A stretch of DNA of 64,000 nt, taken from Naegleria gruberi (taxonomy: Eukaryota). Location: the NCBI GenBank assembly GCA_000004985.1, contig GG738857.1. One strand, written 5' to 3'. Of the stretch, positions 43,706 through 58,899 are shown piece by piece. Position 1 is the first letter of the stretch. Every line of letters begins with the position of its first letter. The translations under genes and the position numbers were made by a program. Below the pieces are notes generated by a model. That model did not search any database. It was not told the DNA's origin and saw only the letters and a list, made by a program, of their open reading frames with translations.

Positions 43706-44931
43706 ATGGTCATTGATATTAGTCCTAGTTCATTCAAGAGAGTTGGTGTTGTTTATAATCCAATTTCAAGAGGAGGTAAGTAAAATAATTAGATGGTGAT
43801 AATTAATATATGCGATGATCAAATTATCAATTAATAATAGGTCAATCTGGAGCCTTGTTTAAGAATACAATTCATCCACTTCTTGACAAATATTTGAAGG
43901 AACGTATGGTAAAATGTAGAGCCACTGAAAGTATGGGTGATGGCAGTAGATGTGCTTTTGAATTGGTTGTTGAAGATAAATGTGATTTGATTATCACACT
44001 TGGTGGTGATGGTTCTACACAAAATACTCTCAACGGTTTAGTGAGAGGTTGTTTGTATTTGGATCCTCAAGCTTTGGCAAAGGGTGCACCACTCCCAGTT
44101 GGTTTGGCAGTTATTCCAACAGGATCTGGTAATGATTTGCAAAAGACAATCGGAGGTGAACCAGTTGACGTTTATTCAGAAGCATTCTTTGAAAGAACTG
44201 TCAAAACTATTGCAGAATCAGGCAAAGTTGTTTATGCAGATATTGGTAAAGTTGAATATACCAAAGATAATACTGGTATTATTTTGCCAGCATTGAATGA
44301 CGAACATATTCCAAAACAATATTTGAGCAATGACAGTTCTAAGAAACTTGCTTATCAATTTGATAGTGAAAATACTGGTGTTAGATTCTTTATGAATGAA
44401 AGTAGCTTTGGTATCAGTACTTCAGTTTTGAATGCTGTCAACAATAGTACCATCAGCAAGGAGATCAATTATAATGTTCAAACTTTGTGGAAACAACTTA
44501 CCTTTGTTAATCCATCGATTGACGTTGAAGTTGATGGAGAGACTGTTTATAGTGGCATTTCTCAATTGGTTTGTGTTGGTAACGGCAAGGCCTTTGGTAA
44601 TGGCATGTATCCAAATCCTAATGCAACAATTACAAGTGAAAACTTGTCCGTCTGTATTTTACATAACATTAGATTGTGGAATGTATTTTCAGTTGTCTAT
44701 TCTTTGAAGGCCGGAACAATTGGTTCATATGCATTGGCATCTCTTCTTGAAGGAAAGAAATCTTTGAAAGCAAAGAGAAGTGAATCCGAAACTCAAGATG
44801 TTTATTTGGAATGTGATGGTGAAGTTGTTGGTAAATTGCCAGCTCAATATGATGTTGTTCCAGCAATTATTAAAATGATTGTTCCAGAAAGCTCACCAGA
44901 ATATGAACTCCATAGCAAGAAGAATCTCTAA
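43706..44931 (+). CDS. DAGK-catalytic-domain lipid kinase (YegS / acylglycerol-kinase-like), 2 exons
   Basis: Exon 1 43706..43775 (MVIDISPSSFKRVGVVYNPISRGG), 65-nt intron, exon 2 43841..44931. Motifs VVYNPxSRGG and ITLGGDGS. Confidence 0.8.
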
Positions 44932-48662: not shown

Positions 48663-50011
48663 ATGTTTTATGCCGCCGGAGCTAATGAACATGGTAGGTT
48701 ATTAGTAATAATTAAATAGTAAATTGATGGAATATCAAATTAATTTATAGGTCAATTGGGGAATGGTACTTACTCGAACGTTATGGATCTCTCTCCCATC
48801 AACATATCAGCTCATCACTATAGACAAAAAACCTATCGTCAGCTAGGTCCCAAATGTCTTGCTGATTTTGCATCACTCGATGAACGTTCATTGATTGGTC
48901 TTTGTAAAATTAAACAAATTGCTTGTGGTAAACGTCATACCATGATACTAACTGGTAAGTTATTGTATCACAGCATGTTCAAGCTAATTAAACTATTTAA
49001 ATAGAGGAAAATGATTTGTATGCTTGCGGAGATAATTCCAACTCTCAACTTGGAGTCTATGAAACAATATCCAATAATACTGTTGAATGGATAGATTTTG
49101 AACCCGCTAGGACGTCAAGAATTACCTCAATTGCTTGCAGCTCTAATTCTTCCTTTATATTTTTGGAAAATGGTGAAATGTACAAAACAAGTCCTAACAA
49201 AATCTCTAATTTATCCCACAAAAATTCATTTTTCAAACTTACCATCGATAGCAAGAGCCAAGTGAAGAATTTCTTTAGCTCACCAACAACGAGTAGATTC
49301 CACATACTAACCAATGATAATTCTGTATTTGTAGGAGGGGAAGATGAGCAAGGTTTTTGGTTGTCAAGACAAGACCAAGCTCTGAAACCGACATCATTCC
49401 CTATCATCACCAACCCAATTAAAATAATTTCAAGTGGAGGTTTCCATACAGTCATTATTACCGAGAAGAATGAATATTTCAGTTTGGGAGGAAATTATTT
49501 CTATCAACGAGGTGACACAGATGATAGAGCTGCCATTAGAGAAGGTACTAATTTACCATTCTCTGGAAAGGCTATTAGTCAAGTTTGTTGTGGACATTTC
49601 CACACACTAGTGTTGTGTGCAGATGGAAGCTTGTATGCTTGTGGTAAAAACAGTCATGGACAACTTGGAAGCCCAACCCTCAATGAAAAGAATCTCTACA
49701 TGAAAGTACCAATTAATGCCTATATACACTCAATGCTTTGTGGAACAGACCATACCGTATTATTATCAACTGATAAGAGAGTTATGAGATGTGGAAAAAA
49801 TGACAGAGGGCAAATCTTTATAGATTTCAAAAAGCAAAACTCATCATTTGAAATGCTGAAAGTCAAGGAGTTTGCCCATTTGGCTTGTGGTGCTCATTTT
49901 ACAATATGTTATGGAGACATGACCTATGTTATTAATCGTTTCCCAAAGATTGCTTCATTTCTGAAGAGAACAGAACTATCTGATGTGAGGATTAAGTGTT
50001 ATGACGATTAA
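48663..50011 (+). CDS. RCC1-repeat protein, 3 exons
   Basis: Exon 1 48663..48693 (MFYAAGANEHG), exon 2 48751..48954, exon 3 49005..50011. Motifs GQLGNG, YACGDNSNSQLG, YACGKNSHGQLG, MRCGKNDRGQIF. Confidence 0.7.
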
Positions 50012-50216: not shown

Positions 50217-52256
50217 TTATTGTTGGTTGGTATTGAGAATATACGATAGTTTGTGTTTAGGTTGATCTGGTAAACTATCTGAAGATTTGGAAAATGTTGA
50301 GTGTTTTTGTTTTTCGGTAGTCCATCTCTTAAATGAATCGAAAATGATATTATTCACGACAATATCCTCCAAACCACTAAAAAGTTCCTGCTGTCCAATA
50401 CCACTATTAATTTTGTATCTATATGAATCCAATTCTGTGCTTGAAATATTCAGCAATTTTGGAGCGTTTGGAGCCAAATACTTTTGATACATTTCCTTCT
50501 GCAGTTCACTTCTTTGCTGTAAATTGTTCAGCATCTTGTAGAATTGAACATCTTCCAAGAAGAGTATGGATTCTTCATTGTGCTCCTTAATACAGAACTC
50601 TTTAAATTCATTTCTCTTGGTGTGGTTGTCGAACATTTCCTTAAATTCAATTTTTTCTACGAGTTTGTTGTATTGGGTTTCCTTTTCCTTCAAGTGCTTC
50701 AAGAGGGATGTTTTATCTGTATGGTTGTGGATGAGAAGGACGCAAACCAAAATATAATCAGAGATTTCTTCTGTTGACTTATCCTCTGATTGATGCTTGT
50801 TTGCCTCAGTTTTGAGCATTTTACAAAAGTTGATAGAAACTCTCACATTGAACTCAATGCCCACCTTACTAGAGGCAACAGTTTCAAGATCGTGGAATGA
50901 TGCTTCATCTCCTTCAGTGAGGGCTTTTTCAAACATTTCTTTCAAATTGAGTTTTGGTAGAATTGAATTAATGATAGTTGACCTATCCTTTTCACCTCTT
51001 CTCAAATCAATTTCTGTCAGTGAAAACATGTTGTAGAATGCATTATTACAGTGAATAATGGATCCATCAGTTAGAATTGTAATGACAGCATCATCGATGG
51101 TGTTCAAAATTCTTCTTGTTCTCTGCTCCTCGAGAGAAATCTTATCCAATAGCACAGATAATTGTTGATGACTCTGAGCTAGATCTTTCGTCCTCTCTGC
51201 CACCTTAATTTCTAATTTGTTTTGAATGATGAGGTATTCCTTCTTTCTAAAATAGTCCTGAACCAATTGGAAGACTGCCAGAATGACTAGAACTGCCAAA
51301 ATAAAATTCAAAACAATACCAAAAGCAATTTCCACATAGTAGGTATCTTCGTGGGTCCATCCTTGTAAAGGTTTTAACAAGAGTTTGTATTCGCTATTGA
51401 GAATGGTCATATTTACAGAGATTGCATCATCAATGCTAGTCAAGTTGGTAGTGATACCATTTGTTGTCATGTTGGTACCATTTCTGGCCTCTAAGAAAAT
51501 TCTATTTTGTTCATATTCATATAATTGATATTCATAACCTTTGAGAGTATCATGGAGGTTGATTCTGTTGAATAATGTTGTAAAATAGATGATTGAACTC
51601 GATAATCCCCAAAATGTTTGATTAGGATAAAACAATGGGTACTGTGTAATGAGAGCAGCTGTTGCTAATCTCTTAATATAGATTGGTCCAAAGATTGTAG
51701 TTTCCTTCAGTTCAATTGCTCTGTTGATGGCTCTCAAGTGAGCTGCTTCACTACCAACAACCTTTCCATAAACAAACGAAAGAACAAGTCCCTTGTCAAT
51801 TTCGAATTGTGCTAATTCCGGATAAATTACATTTAACCTCGAACCAAGGTCTGCAAATGAAGAATCCGTTATTGTATAATTTGATGAATAAATTACTTGA
51901 GCAATTGAAACTAAACTACTCATTGACAATTCTATTTGTCTTTTCATGGCCAAGTAGGCTGTTAATCCCACCTGTGTAACTTGTGCCTTCTTTGTTTCCA
52001 TTCTATTATCATCAACAGTTTTTAAAACGACAGACGTCACCGGCACAGTCACACACAAGGCAACCAATGCCAGAACTAAACCCAATATTATACTCAATAT
52101 ATAGACTCCTCGTTGTCTTTTCGATAATTCTTGTTTCAAATTTCCTACAACATTTTCACTTGTTGAAAGAGCTTGTTTAGATTGTTTTAATGTTGGAGTT
52201 GAATCTCCAGCCACAGTTGGCCCAATTTCTTCGTCTATTAGCGAATCCAGCACCAT
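50217..52256 (-). CDS. membrane RGS-domain protein: TM - ~250-aa extracytoplasmic domain - TM - coiled region - PAS-like - C-terminal RGS
   Basis: TM helices VYILSIILGLVLALVALCV and YVEIAFGIVLNFILAVLVILAVF. PAS-like segment IDDAVITILTDGSIIHCNNAFYNMFSL. RGS core EFKEFCIKEHNEESILFLEDVQFYK...IFDSFKRW. Confidence 0.7.
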   Translation of the reverse strand: MVLDSLIDEEIGPTVAGDSTPTLKQSKQALSTSENVVGNLKQELSKRQRGVYILSIILGLVLALVALCVTVPVTSVVLKTVDDNRMETKKAQVTQVGLTAYLAMKRQIELSMSSLVSIAQVIYSSNYTITDSSFADLGSRLNVIYPELAQFEIDKGLVLSFVYGKVVGSEAAHLRAINRAIELKETTIFGPIYIKRLATAALITQYPLFYPNQTFWGLSSSIIYFTTLFNRINLHDTLKGYEYQLYEYEQNRIFLEARNGTNMTTNGITTNLTSIDDAISVNMTILNSEYKLLLKPLQGWTHEDTYYVEIAFGIVLNFILAVLVILAVFQLVQDYFRKKEYLIIQNKLEIKVAERTKDLAQSHQQLSVLLDKISLEEQRTRRILNTIDDAVITILTDGSIIHCNNAFYNMFSLTEIDLRRGEKDRSTIINSILPKLNLKEMFEKALTEGDEASFHDLETVASSKVGIEFNVRVSINFCKMLKTEANKHQSEDKSTEEISDYILVCVLLIHNHTDKTSLLKHLKEKETQYNKLVEKIEFKEMFDNHTKRNEFKEFCIKEHNEESILFLEDVQFYKMLNNLQQRSELQKEMYQKYLAPNAPKLLNISSTELDSYRYKINSGIGQQELFSGLEDIVVNNIIFDSFKRWTTEKQKHSTFSKSSDSLPDQPKHKLSYILNTNQQ

Positions 52257-55360: not shown

Positions 55361-56884
55361 ATGAGTGAGAATAATACACCAAACTTTGACGCATTCTCTC
55401 CAATTGTATTTCCAATGGATCTGCCAACGGCAGGTGGTAGTAATCAAACATCATCATCAGCAGTCGGTGGTGGATCATCATCATTGGGTTTGAATACATC
55501 GAGCAATTTTCTAACACCTTCAGTCTTTGAAACGAATGTAAGAGTTGGCGTTAATCAAACTTCAAGTATTAAACCGATTAGAGCTGTGGGTCTTGATGCT
55601 TTTAATAATGATACTTCATCGGTGCCAATTTCTAATGAAGAATCACCACAAATATTTACACCAGGCATCACAGCTGAACTTTTAAATACACAAACACCAA
55701 GGATTCAACTTTTACCTCCAACTCCAACACCAAACGAAACTCCATTCGCAACCAAGATTGACAATCTTTATCCACAGCAGGTTGATCCATTGAGCAACTT
55801 TGATTTTGGACAAAAGAATCATAGACCTGTAGGTGCTGCAAATATTGTGACACAATATCCTGCCAATACTTTTAATATGCATGTCATGAAGGGTTTCTTT
55901 ATTGATCCAAGTCAAGTTGCCGCAGTTCCACAAGGTATGCCACAAATTCCAGGTCCCAGTAGTGATTCGCCATCGTCACCAACTGGTGAATGTCTTCCAA
56001 CTGGTACTTTACTTTCTGTTATTAGAGGATTTAGTATTGATGATGGAGTTCCAGAAGAACCTGGTGGCAGAGACAATAAGAAACCACTCACTTCACACAC
56101 TGTTCAAGTTAGAATTGCTGACCTAGTTGCCGAACATCCATTAGGTCCAAATCAAACCTACGTAATCAAATGTGTATTATTAGGTTATAAACGATATGAA
56201 AAGGAAGAATTATCAACATTAGAATCAATACCAATTGAAAATATTGATAACCCTGCAGAGTATGAAGAATTTGTCTTTAACAATCTGATTGTTAAACAAA
56301 CAAGTCACAGCAATGGTCAAAAGTTATTCTTGAGATTTAAACTTGAAATTAATTCTGATAGTGGAGAACAAGTATTGGAAGCTTTAGATACTACACACTT
56401 TAAAACAGTCACAAAGAGAGCTGTCATTAAAAGAGGTGTAACTAGGAAATTGAGCGAGCAAAAGAAGACAGCAACTGTATTGACAGGAGCAGAACCAAAA
56501 TACAGTGTCACTTCTGGTGGTCAATTGATAAAACTGGTAACAAATAACATGCCAGAAAAGGTCAGAGTTCAAACAATTGTAGTTAAATTTGGAGAAAAGA
56601 AAGCCAGAAGAGTTCACTCAGCTAGGGATAATGTAATTATTTGTGAAACACCTGAATATCCAAAATCTGACAATGTACCAATTTCTGTTTCATTAGATAG
56701 TGGAGCAACATTTTTCCATTCGTCTGGTGTTAAAATGTCGTTTATTGACCCAACTGATGGATTACCAGATATCACTCCTCACAGTCAAACATTTGTTGTG
56801 AACTTTGCTCAGGCTGCCAGTGACCTTAAACATGACAGAGATGAAGATACCGAACCAAATAATAAGAAAAAGTCTAAGAAATAA
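55361..56884 (+). CDS. hypothetical protein; S/T-rich N-terminus and a C-terminal beta-sandwich (IPT/TIG-like) candidate
   Basis: 507-aa ORF; YSVTSGGQLIKLVTNNMPEKVRVQTIVVKFGEKKARRVHSARDNVIICETPEY resembles an IPT/TIG fold. Confidence 0.5.
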   Translation: MSENNTPNFDAFSPIVFPMDLPTAGGSNQTSSSAVGGGSSSLGLNTSSNFLTPSVFETNVRVGVNQTSSIKPIRAVGLDAFNNDTSSVPISNEESPQIFTPGITAELLNTQTPRIQLLPPTPTPNETPFATKIDNLYPQQVDPLSNFDFGQKNHRPVGAANIVTQYPANTFNMHVMKGFFIDPSQVAAVPQGMPQIPGPSSDSPSSPTGECLPTGTLLSVIRGFSIDDGVPEEPGGRDNKKPLTSHTVQVRIADLVAEHPLGPNQTYVIKCVLLGYKRYEKEELSTLESIPIENIDNPAEYEEFVFNNLIVKQTSHSNGQKLFLRFKLEINSDSGEQVLEALDTTHFKTVTKRAVIKRGVTRKLSEQKKTATVLTGAEPKYSVTSGGQLIKLVTNNMPEKVRVQTIVVKFGEKKARRVHSARDNVIICETPEYPKSDNVPISVSLDSGATFFHSSGVKMSFIDPTDGLPDITPHSQTFVVNFAQAASDLKHDRDEDTEPNNKKKSKK

Positions 56885-56892
56885 ATGTAAAT

Positions 56893-58899
56893 TTAAACAA
56901 GATTTAAATTCTTCATATCATCGTCATATTTCTTCAATTCTCTAACCATGTCAATAAAGTTAGAGCTCAGAATAAATCTTGACCATGTATCTTGAACACA
57001 ATTTAAACAGGTTATTTCTACATTATCAAGGATGGTATTTAAAAGGTCAGTGTTGCTGGATTGCCATGATGAATCCCCTTTCTCTGTCATTTCTTGATCT
57101 CCACTTTTGTTGAGATGGGTTTCCACGAGTTGATTGAGTTGCTTAAGAGATCTATCAAACTCCTTCTTTACATTGGATGAAAGATTGAGCTCGAATGGTG
57201 CACCATTGACAATAAAGCTCTCGTTGAGTTTGTGTAATATTTGTGTTTTCTTTCTGATATCCTCAAAGGTATGAGTTGGAAGATTGTTGAAAACCTTATT
57301 GGAAAAGTACAAGAATAAAAAGTTCTCTGCTGAAAACTCCAATTCGCACCATTCTTTGAAATATTTCTGACAAACCTCCTCATTAAACATGACAAAGAGA
57401 ATGACACGAGTATCAACAATTCTTTCATCTTGCTCTTCTGCATTTTCCTTTGTAAGAAATCCAGCTTCAGTGTAGAGAATCTTTCTAATTCTATCATTTT
57501 CCATATCGGAGGATAAATCTCTGAACAAGTTGCTACTACCACTTCTATCAGCAGAATTATTCTTATTCTTGATTCCAATTTTCTTGCCGTCAGAGTTTTG
57601 CCATAAGAAACTTCTAATCAAAGGTATCCATACACTGATGATACTTGTAATGAAGAGAGGAATATTAACCATCCATGCAGCTGCAAAGTAATATTCAGGT
57701 TCTGCTTGGTATTGTGGAATGACACTCATTAAAATAAAGCCAATTAAGAAAATGGCCCAAATTACCACAACAGATACCAACTCTGCCTTGATGCCAAAGG
57801 ATTCCTTGGCATATCTCATTACCTTGTAGAAGAAGAATAGAATGAAAATACCATAGAATAGAATGAGAGAAATTGAACCTGCATATACAGGAATAGTAGC
57901 AGCACAACCCACATTCCAAGTTTCTTGACCTGTCAATCTATTCAAAAACACTCCACAATAAGCCAAAAAGATAATACTGTTCAAGAGGAAAGTGAATAAG
58001 AAAATTTTAGCAGTAAAGTCCTCTCTAGCCAATTTTCTCAATTGCTTCAATCTCTTTTGTCTCTTTTCTGACCATTTCTTACTCTTGGCTGTATTGTCAA
58101 CATTTCCACCTAAATGCAAAGCACTTTTCACTCTCTCCTTAAAACTCTTCGATGTAGAACTATCTCTTTTAAGGTGTGGAATGTTTTGTGAATTTTTTCT
58201 ATCCAGGGCAAGGTCGAATGAACCTGTTGTGGAGACAGTTGCTGGTGAAGCATCTGTTGTTATCTGTGAAAGTGAAGAATTTGCAGTCAACAAATGTATT
58301 TGAGAAGATGATTTGTCAAGCTTCTTTTCCGTTGTTGATGATGTTTCCAAAAGATCAACGCCCATGGAAACTAAATGACTCTTAAAACTATCACCCTGTA
58401 ATCTGTTCATTTCAGAAATATAGTACAATCTGATGCACAAGACAAGGTATGGAATGGCTATCAGTGGAAAGCCATAAAATTGAAAACTCAAATAGAATAT
58501 ACAAGGGAAGGCCTCTCTTTTCACAGCCAACCTCAGAGAAAGTATCGTAAAGGAAAAATAATGTGCAATAATTAATATAAATACAAATAGTGAGGATCTC
58601 GCCTTGACAGGTTGTTTGTTTCTTCTAAAGAAGAATGTTATGAGTGTTACGATTGTATATATTGTGAATGCTCCCCAAATTGCATATGATGTGTACCAAA
58701 CGTATGGTGGATCATCTCGTGTAATCTGTTGATTAAATTGGTCCTGTTGAATATCATAGATTTTTCCAATTTCTTCCAAATTATTCGAAAGTTGAAAATG
58801 ACTCGCCGATGCTGATGATGATGTACACGTGAACATATTCATTATCCTATTCACTATCGATTGTGAAAGGAAATCCATCGTGGTTAATAAATATCTCAT
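56893..58899 (-). CDS. seven-transmembrane protein with C-terminal RGS domain (7TM-RGS)
   Basis: Seven hydrophobic helices (TM1-3, ~140-aa basic/Ser-rich loop, TM4-7), then FKEWCELEFSAENFLFLYFSNKVF...LHKLNESFIVNGAPFELNLSSNVKKEF (RGS box). Confidence 0.7.
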   Translation of the reverse strand: MRYLLTTMDFLSQSIVNRIMNMFTCTSSSASASHFQLSNNLEEIGKIYDIQQDQFNQQITRDDPPYVWYTSYAIWGAFTIYTIVTLITFFFRRNKQPVKARSSLFVFILIIAHYFSFTILSLRLAVKREAFPCIFYLSFQFYGFPLIAIPYLVLCIRLYYISEMNRLQGDSFKSHLVSMGVDLLETSSTTEKKLDKSSSQIHLLTANSSLSQITTDASPATVSTTGSFDLALDRKNSQNIPHLKRDSSTSKSFKERVKSALHLGGNVDNTAKSKKWSEKRQKRLKQLRKLAREDFTAKIFLFTFLLNSIIFLAYCGVFLNRLTGQETWNVGCAATIPVYAGSISLILFYGIFILFFFYKVMRYAKESFGIKAELVSVVVIWAIFLIGFILMSVIPQYQAEPEYYFAAAWMVNIPLFITSIISVWIPLIRSFLWQNSDGKKIGIKNKNNSADRSGSSNLFRDLSSDMENDRIRKILYTEAGFLTKENAEEQDERIVDTRVILFVMFNEEVCQKYFKEWCELEFSAENFLFLYFSNKVFNNLPTHTFEDIRKKTQILHKLNESFIVNGAPFELNLSSNVKKEFDRSLKQLNQLVETHLNKSGDQEMTEKGDSSWQSSNTDLLNTILDNVEITCLNCVQDTWSRFILSSNFIDMVRELKKYDDDMKNLNLV

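Follow-up and report, generated by a model that had tools for sequence, protein, structure and literature searches.

A two-pass membrane protein with an RGS output in Naegleria gruberi

A gene for a putative membrane-bound sensor ending in an RGS domain lies on contig GG738857.1 of Naegleria gruberi (assembly GCA_000004985.1), on the minus strand at positions 50217..52256 of a 64,000-nucleotide stretch of DNA, referred to here as the window. It is a complete, single-exon coding sequence of 679 codons plus stop, which begins with ATG and runs unbroken in the list of open reading frames (ORFs), and the G+C content along the whole window is 31-37%. The product is the 'RGS domain-containing protein [Naegleria gruberi]' of NCBI and UniRef (100% identity, 100% coverage), and full-length orthologs exist in related species. 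Sequence profiles and structural models assign to it, from N- to C-terminus, a divergent CHASE ectodomain between two transmembrane (TM) segments, a cytoplasmic PAS domain and an RGS domain, and it is therefore called here the CHASE-PAS-RGS protein. All coordinates of its parts given below refer to the minus strand.

A sequence-only reading of this DNA had proposed a sensor-like order of TM segment, outside domain of about 250 residues, second TM segment, PAS-like segment and C-terminal RGS domain. All of these elements are present between 50217 and 52256 and in that order; the outside domain does lie between two TM segments, with a length of 227 residues. The same reading likened the layout to a bacterial-type sensor in which an RGS domain replaces the kinase, and this likeness holds, with the PAS and RGS domains above their Pfam thresholds and the ectodomain assigned as a divergent CHASE domain.

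Membrane topology

Kyte-Doolittle hydropathy picks out two strongly hydrophobic segments and no others (residues ~51-80 and ~308-333), and between them lies the 227-residue domain; seven TM helices ahead of the RGS box are not found by this analysis. The first 50 residues (52107..52256) form a hydrophilic, presumably cytoplasmic tail devoid of any hydrophobic window, which ends in KRQR and contains the motifs MVLxSL and LKxELSKRQRG common to the orthologs. TM1 (residues 51-80; 52017..52106) is about 30 residues long, with 19-residue windows peaking at 3.0, and aligns with TM1 of bacterial CHASE sensors, in which the equivalent segment serves as an uncleaved anchor. The 15 residues ahead of it carry four K/R versus one D/E. 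TM2 (residues 308-333; 51258..51335) is followed by a 15-residue flank with four K/R, in the conserved sequence DYFRKKEY.

TM1 is a signal anchor: it starts only at residue 51, spans ~30 residues and is preceded by no methionine, between residue 1 and the segment itself, that could give a shorter N-terminus. Cleavage of this segment as a signal peptide, which would leave a simple type-I membrane protein and which the sequence-only reading had named as fatal to its proposal, is ruled out by the same three features, TM1 coming after a tail that ends in KRQR. The hydropathy and charge patterns indicate a two-pass protein, N-in/C-in, whose 227-residue domain is predicted to be extracytoplasmic. 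This segment is free of cysteines and contains six N-x-S/T sequons, versus 2.3 expected from shuffling (P~0.016). Its predicted place, outside the cytoplasm and between two N-terminal TM helices of a signalling protein, is that of a CHASE domain.

The ectodomain as a divergent CHASE domain

Direct searches are of little help in naming the ectodomain. Pfam scans with the ectodomain alone or within the full protein return, at E≤10, only spurious TM-driven matches (SteA-like_C, PV-1), and a PDB sequence search with a four-sequence Naegleria profile yields only noise (cyclodipeptide synthase, monellin). Its affiliation is established through more distant relatives. HMMER, run exhaustively against 1.84 billion representative proteins with a four-sequence profile that spans TM1, ectodomain and TM2, matches 430 of them at E≤1e-3, of which 36 reach E≤1e-10; bacterial matches go down to E~1e-15. 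The best ~15 matches are eukaryote-like, and most of them share the architecture, several lacking the RGS domain. From P0019 downwards in the ranking, the alignment covers residues ~10-290 of the matched protein, immediately behind an N-terminal TM segment. A Pfam scan of 75 of the 430 proteins detects CHASE in 58 (best E=1.4e-33), HATPase_c in 33, HisKA in 26, Response_reg in 12, GGDEF in 9, RGS in 7 and EAL in 6, the CHASE relatives being mostly bacterial histidine kinases or proteins with GGDEF/EAL outputs. In four bacterial proteins (P0019, P0023, P0025 and P0028), a CHASE match above cut-off falls inside the stretch aligned with the Naegleria profile, with PAS and then a kinase core behind it.

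Sequence and structure comparisons converge on the same family. The ectodomain aligns end to end with bacterial relatives in a multiple alignment with the common motifs YP, T..GP, P(I/V)F, FWG, GY.Y.L and W.L..P..GW. When 13 heterolobosean ectodomains are compared with seven bacterial CHASE domains by hhalign, the two profiles match over 212 columns with a probability of 99.9% and E=8e-32. A mixed profile used in a PDB sequence search retrieves first the AHK4 sensor domain (E=0.0029) and then Xanthomonas PcrK. AlphaFold2 (AF2) models the ectodomain alone, from nine sequences, with a mean predicted local distance difference test (pLDDT) of 81.1 and a predicted TM-score of 0.78, as a stalk helix of 44 residues that leads into two alpha/beta lobes, and the best Foldseek TM-scores of this model (0.69-0.70) are to AHK4. 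This confidence depended on enlarging the alignment with bacterial CHASE sequences and with P0020 and P0160, two divergent relatives that have no RGS domain; in an earlier full-length model built from four sequences, the ectodomain pLDDT was below 50. The model has the long N-terminal helix and the two PAS-like alpha/beta lobes seen in AHK4. Judged from profiles, profile-profile comparison and model together, residues 81-307 (51336..52016) are thus a divergent CHASE domain, CHASE being a family within the tandem-PAS/Cache fold class. The sequence-only reading had advised structure prediction and a profile search with CHASE, Cache and PBP-like domains in mind; the answer of both is CHASE. Precomputed Pfam lists for the CHASE-PAS-RGS proteins carry only PAS and RGS, so that CHASE is absent from the current annotation.

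A cytokinin receptor of the AHK4 style is not supported. Asp262 of AHK4, a cytokinin contact, aligns (weakly) with His173 of the N. gruberi protein, and the adjacent loop carries a seven-residue deletion, so that cytokinin binding of this kind is not indicated. The position of His173 is occupied by His in 8 of the 13 heterolobosean sequences and by Arg in most bacterial relatives.

The signalling helix and the cytoplasmic PAS domain

In the AF2 model, an unbroken helix at residues 302-386 comprises TM2 and a 53-residue cytoplasmic extension (residues 334-386; 51099..51257). The motif DYFRKKEY...LExKVxERTKDL of this extension is nearly invariant among the orthologs, and a similar xRT motif follows TM2 in the bacterial relatives. 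Hydrophobic residues read from the sequence recur with heptad spacing (V352, L359, L366 and I373), as is usual for the dimeric helices that extend from TM2 in bacterial sensors and transmit the signal.

The PAS domain follows at residues 387-511 (50724..51098) and includes a low-complexity insert at ~480-500. Pfam PAS_8 matches residues 379-425 (E=2.1e-6, 27.8 bits versus a cut-off of 21.8), which confirms the PAS-like segment of the sequence-only reading, and PAS_9 gives a weaker match at 389-475. The AF2 model shows, over residues 390-511 and with a pLDDT of ~56-73, the PAS-like succession of two strands, four helices and three strands, so that a profile match above threshold coincides with a five-stranded alpha/beta topology. 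When linker and PAS domain are compared with the bacterial relatives, matches are weak (≤20.7 bits) and placed just after TM2; the whole sensor module may plausibly have been inherited together. A linker at residues 512-537 (50646..50723), part of a helix modelled at 516-542, joins the PAS domain to the RGS domain.

The RGS domain

The RGS domain occupies residues 538-646 (50319..50645), where Pfam RGS (PF00615) scores E=1.4e-12 and 48.4 bits versus a cut-off of 23.9. The region matches RGS10, RGS6, RGS5, RGS7, RGS17 and RGS4 in a PDB sequence search, and AF2 predicts an all-helical C-terminal domain at residues 516-654. The remaining tail (residues 647-679 plus stop; 50217..50318) is poorly conserved, varies among the orthologs and has a pLDDT below 50 for residues 652-679.

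The family was aligned to RGS4, whose sequence was checked by residue identity at ten landmark positions. In RGS4, the switch regions of Gα are contacted by E87, N88, N128, D163, S164 and R167, and N128 reportedly contacts the catalytic Gln of Gα in the RGS4-Gαi1 structure of Tesmer et al. 1997. Five of these six contacts are identical in the N. gruberi protein, where E87, N128, D163, S164 and R167 correspond to E561, N603, D640, S641 and R644, all five being invariant in the Naegleria orthologs. Because these equivalents are retained, the protein bears the sequence hallmarks of an RGS box competent as a GTPase-activating protein (GAP). The output is not that of a two-component sensor: Pfam finds no HisKA, HATPase_c or receiver domain in the protein at E≤10, and the pair of HisKA/DHp and HATPase_c that defines a two-component histidine kinase, whose components occur in 26-33 of the 75 ectodomain homologs scanned, is missing.

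Distribution, gene neighborhood and origin

Naegleria is an amoeboflagellate of the Heterolobosea, in the Discoba, and not an amoebozoan; the survey of Amoebozoa for orthologs that the sequence-only reading had recommended was directed at the wrong clade. Full-length orthologs are found in N. lovaniensis (59% identity) and N. fowleri (62%), together with a 478-residue environmental fragment (43% identical), and the ectodomains of the orthologs are 63% identical. The CHASE-PAS-RGS architecture is present in all three Naegleria species, in three paralogs of Willaertia magna (KAL9649680.1, KAL9656577.1 and KAL9646184.1) and in at least five environmental clusters (P0004, P0006, P0010/P0161, P0011/P0157 and P0015). 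The Willaertia paralogs were found by the exhaustive HMMER search and had been missed by a word-indexed homolog search of low recall (4, 3 and 2 matches). A family-specific RGS profile confines RGS to the closest relatives of the ectodomain and detects it in none of the bacterial-type homologs.

A sister set of environmental, eukaryote-like proteins (P0009, P0012-P0014, P0017, P0020 and P0160) has the order TM-CHASE-TM-helix and no detectable RGS domain. Their C-termini are short or unassigned, with weak PAS-like matches in P0009 and P0013, the two checked. The CHASE-PAS-RGS family could have arisen from proteins of this kind, or they could be its degenerate offshoots. Within the sequences sampled, the architecture is an invention of the Heterolobosea, since retained and duplicated. 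The nearest tight bacterial CHASE subfamily extends across Chloroflexota, Nitrospirota, Desulfobacterota, Pseudomonadota, Methylomirabilota and others, and because it spans so many phyla no bacterial donor can be named; the best bacterial match used alone as a query returned no matches.

Gene order around the N. fowleri ortholog includes a convergent RCC1-like gene, a DAGK-like gene farther away and an upstream gene of ~510 residues with no Pfam match, and these shared neighbors support positional orthology. In the window, the RCC1-like repeat gene (48756..50011, plus strand; WD40_RLD E=3e-39, RCC1_2 E=1e-23) lies tail-to-tail with the CHASE-PAS-RGS gene across a gap of 205 bp, and this pair is kept in N. 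fowleri; a short ORF (48756..49004) appears to be an upstream exon belonging to the RCC1-like gene. The gene resembling lipid kinases (DAGK_cat and YegS_C; 43855..44931, plus strand) has its N. fowleri counterpart, L081, on the same side, which adds to the synteny. On the other side, a 507-residue ORF (55361..56884, plus strand), with no Pfam match, appears to correspond to the 511-residue gene beside the N. fowleri ortholog.

G-protein signaling in Naegleria and related receptor designs

N. fowleri has 13 Gα subunits, among them Gα5 and Gα7, which are self-activating, their nucleotide exchange being faster than hydrolysis (Bosch et al. 2022, PMC9283941). The same study reports 28 seven-transmembrane (7TM)-RGS proteins, with GAP activity demonstrated for some, 79 further, uncharacterized RGS proteins and an RGS-RhoGEF effector; the RGS domains assayed were those of 7TM-RGS proteins and of the RGS-RhoGEF only (PMC9283941). 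When Gα is self-activating, GTP hydrolysis becomes the regulated step, and RGS-fused membrane receptors are therefore a natural input.

A candidate of the 7TM-RGS type is also encoded in the window, 4.6 kb from the CHASE-PAS-RGS gene and on the same strand. In this 668-residue ORF (56893..58899, minus strand), some seven segments are hydrophobic, and Pfam detects RGS weakly towards the C-terminus (E=0.0052, residues 505-590). The matched region is 28% identical to the RGS domain of the CHASE-PAS-RGS protein and keeps the equivalents of E87, N88, N128, D163 and R167 of RGS4. The ORF probably encodes a receptor of the 7TM-RGS type known from N. fowleri. No 7TM-RGS protein is encoded among the called genes within 10 kb on either side of the N. 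fowleri ortholog of the CHASE-PAS-RGS gene.

The 7TM-RGS 'receptor GAPs', such as Arabidopsis AtRGS1 and the 28 proteins of N. fowleri (PMC9283941), share with the CHASE-PAS-RGS protein an integral membrane location, an RGS domain at the cytoplasmic C-terminus, a host with self-activating Gα and a presumed control of GTP hydrolysis instead of nucleotide exchange. They differ in the membrane part, since the CHASE-PAS-RGS protein has two TM segments, a large CHASE ectodomain and a cytoplasmic PAS domain, and the homologs of its sensor half are bacterial two-component sensors and not GPCR-like (G-protein-coupled receptor-like) 7TM bundles. Because of its two TM segments and its different sensor, it is a functional analogue and not a member of the 7TM-RGS group. 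The CHASE sensor kinases, namely Arabidopsis AHK4/CRE1, Xanthomonas PcrK, Dictyostelium DhkA and the bacterial proteins of the order CHASE-PAS-HisKA-HATPase_c, resemble it in the sensor half; unlike them, it is devoid of HisKA, HATPase_c and receiver domains, has RGS as its output and carries His173 in place of Asp262.

A CHASE domain with a non-kinase output is already known in a protist. Dictyostelid adenylate cyclase G (ACG), in which CHASE is flanked by TM helices and coupled to a cyclase (PMC4399386), differs in that its output makes a second messenger and does not regulate Gα, and its host belongs to the Amoebozoa, a different supergroup. Soluble RGS proteins (RGS4, RGS10 and others of the R4/R12 types) share the RGS box (E=1.4e-12 in the present protein) and the five RGS4 contact equivalents, whereas the RGS domain of the window is tethered to a TM sensor and has Ser, Leu and Asn for N88, W92 and L159.

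Databases already list the gene, with generic names; the novelty lies in the recognition of CHASE, and hence of a CHASE-PAS-RGS class of receptors. Full-text literature searches found no paper on a combination of CHASE with RGS, nor one on CHASE in Naegleria describing such a protein, with the proviso that a mention in Anantharaman et al. 2011 (Gene 475:63), which reportedly surveyed RGS architectures in protists, remains possible.

A possible receptor-regulated GAP and its alternatives

Given the domain identities and their order, the indicators of topology and the conservation across Heterolobosea, the balance tilts slightly towards a ligand-regulated 'receptor GAP', in which the CHASE sensor, via PAS, would control an RGS domain acting on Naegleria Gα. 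The protein would be a type-II-like, N-in/C-in two-pass receptor located in the plasma membrane and probably dimerizing with itself, whose bacterial-type CHASE ectodomain would sense a small molecule or a peptide. Ligand binding would displace TM2 and the long coiled-coil helix, and the PAS domain would pass the change on, altering, in either direction, the activity, accessibility or orientation of the RGS domain, or the residence of the protein in the membrane; a change in residence would be reminiscent of AtRGS1, which is endocytosed in response to ligand. The RGS domain would speed GTP hydrolysis on one or more partners among Naegleria's many Gα subunits, and the protein might work in parallel with the 7TM-RGS proteins on those that are self-activating. 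The sequence-only reading had suggested that a ligand is linked directly to G-protein shut-off; this stays a proposal, with which the published biochemistry of N. fowleri Gα agrees (PMC9283941).

Several observations weigh against such a receptor. The N. gruberi protein and its ectodomain have no match to Pfam CHASE (PF03924) even at E≤10, let alone above threshold; the sole ortholog with a direct signal reaches E=0.0069, and the distant relative P0013 scores 19.1 bits, the curated threshold being 25 bits. The assignment to CHASE is therefore transitive, made through profiles and fold. The motif GNExxxGHxLLxDPxRR, invariant in the nearest bacterial CHASE subfamily, is degenerate across the heterolobosean family, and N. 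gruberi has in this stretch a deletion of seven residues (window ~51777..51800, residues ~153-160) that are present in N. fowleri and N. lovaniensis (YVYP-NNPSII-GK). The gap coincides with the sole low-confidence loop of the AF2 ectodomain, and the pocket may have changed or lost its function. For the full-length protein, the AF2 model is of low quality (pLDDT 48.8) and uninformative on inter-domain coupling, and we know of no mechanism by which a PAS domain or a coiled coil gates a monomeric RGS bundle. Finally, the equivalent of N88 is Ser in Naegleria, as opposed to Asn in Willaertia and others.

The degenerate motif, its partial deletion and the lack of a direct Pfam match would also fit a constitutive membrane-anchored GAP, in which CHASE and PAS are relics of a sensor that serve for targeting, dimerization or stability and bind no ligand. 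This is the strongest of the alternatives and nevertheless unlikely, as the ectodomain identity among orthologs noted above is accompanied by GP, P, FWG and GW, core motifs of CHASE that are kept across a family of only 20-40% identity, and the complete two-lobe sensor is modeled confidently. Furthermore, the retention of a 227-residue ectodomain together with a PAS domain in at least ten lineages suggests selection for sensing.

It is also conceivable, with slightly less probability, that the actual sensing is done by the cytoplasmic PAS domain, which would respond to redox state, oxygen, a metabolite or light via a cofactor, and that CHASE is secondary or structural. Many bacterial relatives have a PAS domain after TM2 as well, and the PAS profile of the N. 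gruberi protein is above threshold. Its N-terminal part has some similarity to the haem-PAS of FixL in a PDB sequence search; this match, however, is insignificant (E=0.47) and limited to residues 371-417, and no LOV or haem signature was found in the domain. In bacterial CHASE-PAS kinases a membrane-adjacent PAS is usually a transmitter, and the similarity of the present PAS to those of the bacterial relatives is itself weak.

The RGS domain might, less probably again, be a Gα-docking (RH-like) module, in a protein that recruits activated Gα as an effector or scaffold in the manner of RGS-RhoGEFs or GPCR kinases. An RGS-RhoGEF effector does exist in N. fowleri (PMC9283941). In some distant family members the catalytic Asn equivalent to N128 is lost (Ser in P0006, Asp in P0011 and Cys in P0015), and the Ser at the N88 position points the same way. 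On the other hand, N603, D640 and R644, hallmark residues of the GAP interface, are kept in the window protein and its closest relatives, the best sequence matches are GAP-competent RGS domains of the R4/R12/R7 types and not RH domains, and Pfam shows no further output domain for an effector role. An annotation or assembly artefact, whereby a sensor gene and an RGS gene are read as one ORF, has nothing in its favor beyond the unusual domain combination and can be set aside as negligibly probable, because the fusion is found again in N. fowleri (two sources), N. lovaniensis, Willaertia magna (three paralogs) and metagenomes, all assembled independently, and the 679-codon ORF is continuous in a genome of 34% GC.

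Implications for heterolobosean signaling

Where Gα is self-activating, as in plants, Trichomonas and Naegleria, heterotrimeric G proteins are believed to receive their main input through receptor-regulated GAPs. To our knowledge, the 7TM-RGS design is the only one known for such receptors, and its ligands are obscure. If the receptor-GAP reading of the CHASE-PAS-RGS protein is true, the same logic has also been built from a different, prokaryote-derived sensor module, and RGS joins kinase, cyclase and GGDEF/EAL among the outputs of CHASE. Ligand screens on expressed CHASE ectodomains are feasible, AHK4 and PcrK being precedents, and signaling from ligand to GAP to Gα could therefore be directly testable in this family. 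In the pathogen N. fowleri, which has an ortholog, the protein would be a surface-exposed candidate in the G-protein pathway. More tentatively, heterolobosean amoebae may possess a third way of coupling receptors to G proteins, beside GPCRs acting as guanine nucleotide exchange factors and 7TM-RGS proteins: a CHASE/PAS module, probably of bacterial origin, would be wired to an RGS GAP, so that an extracellular cue would set the lifetime of self-activating Gα-GTP with neither a GPCR nor a phosphorelay.

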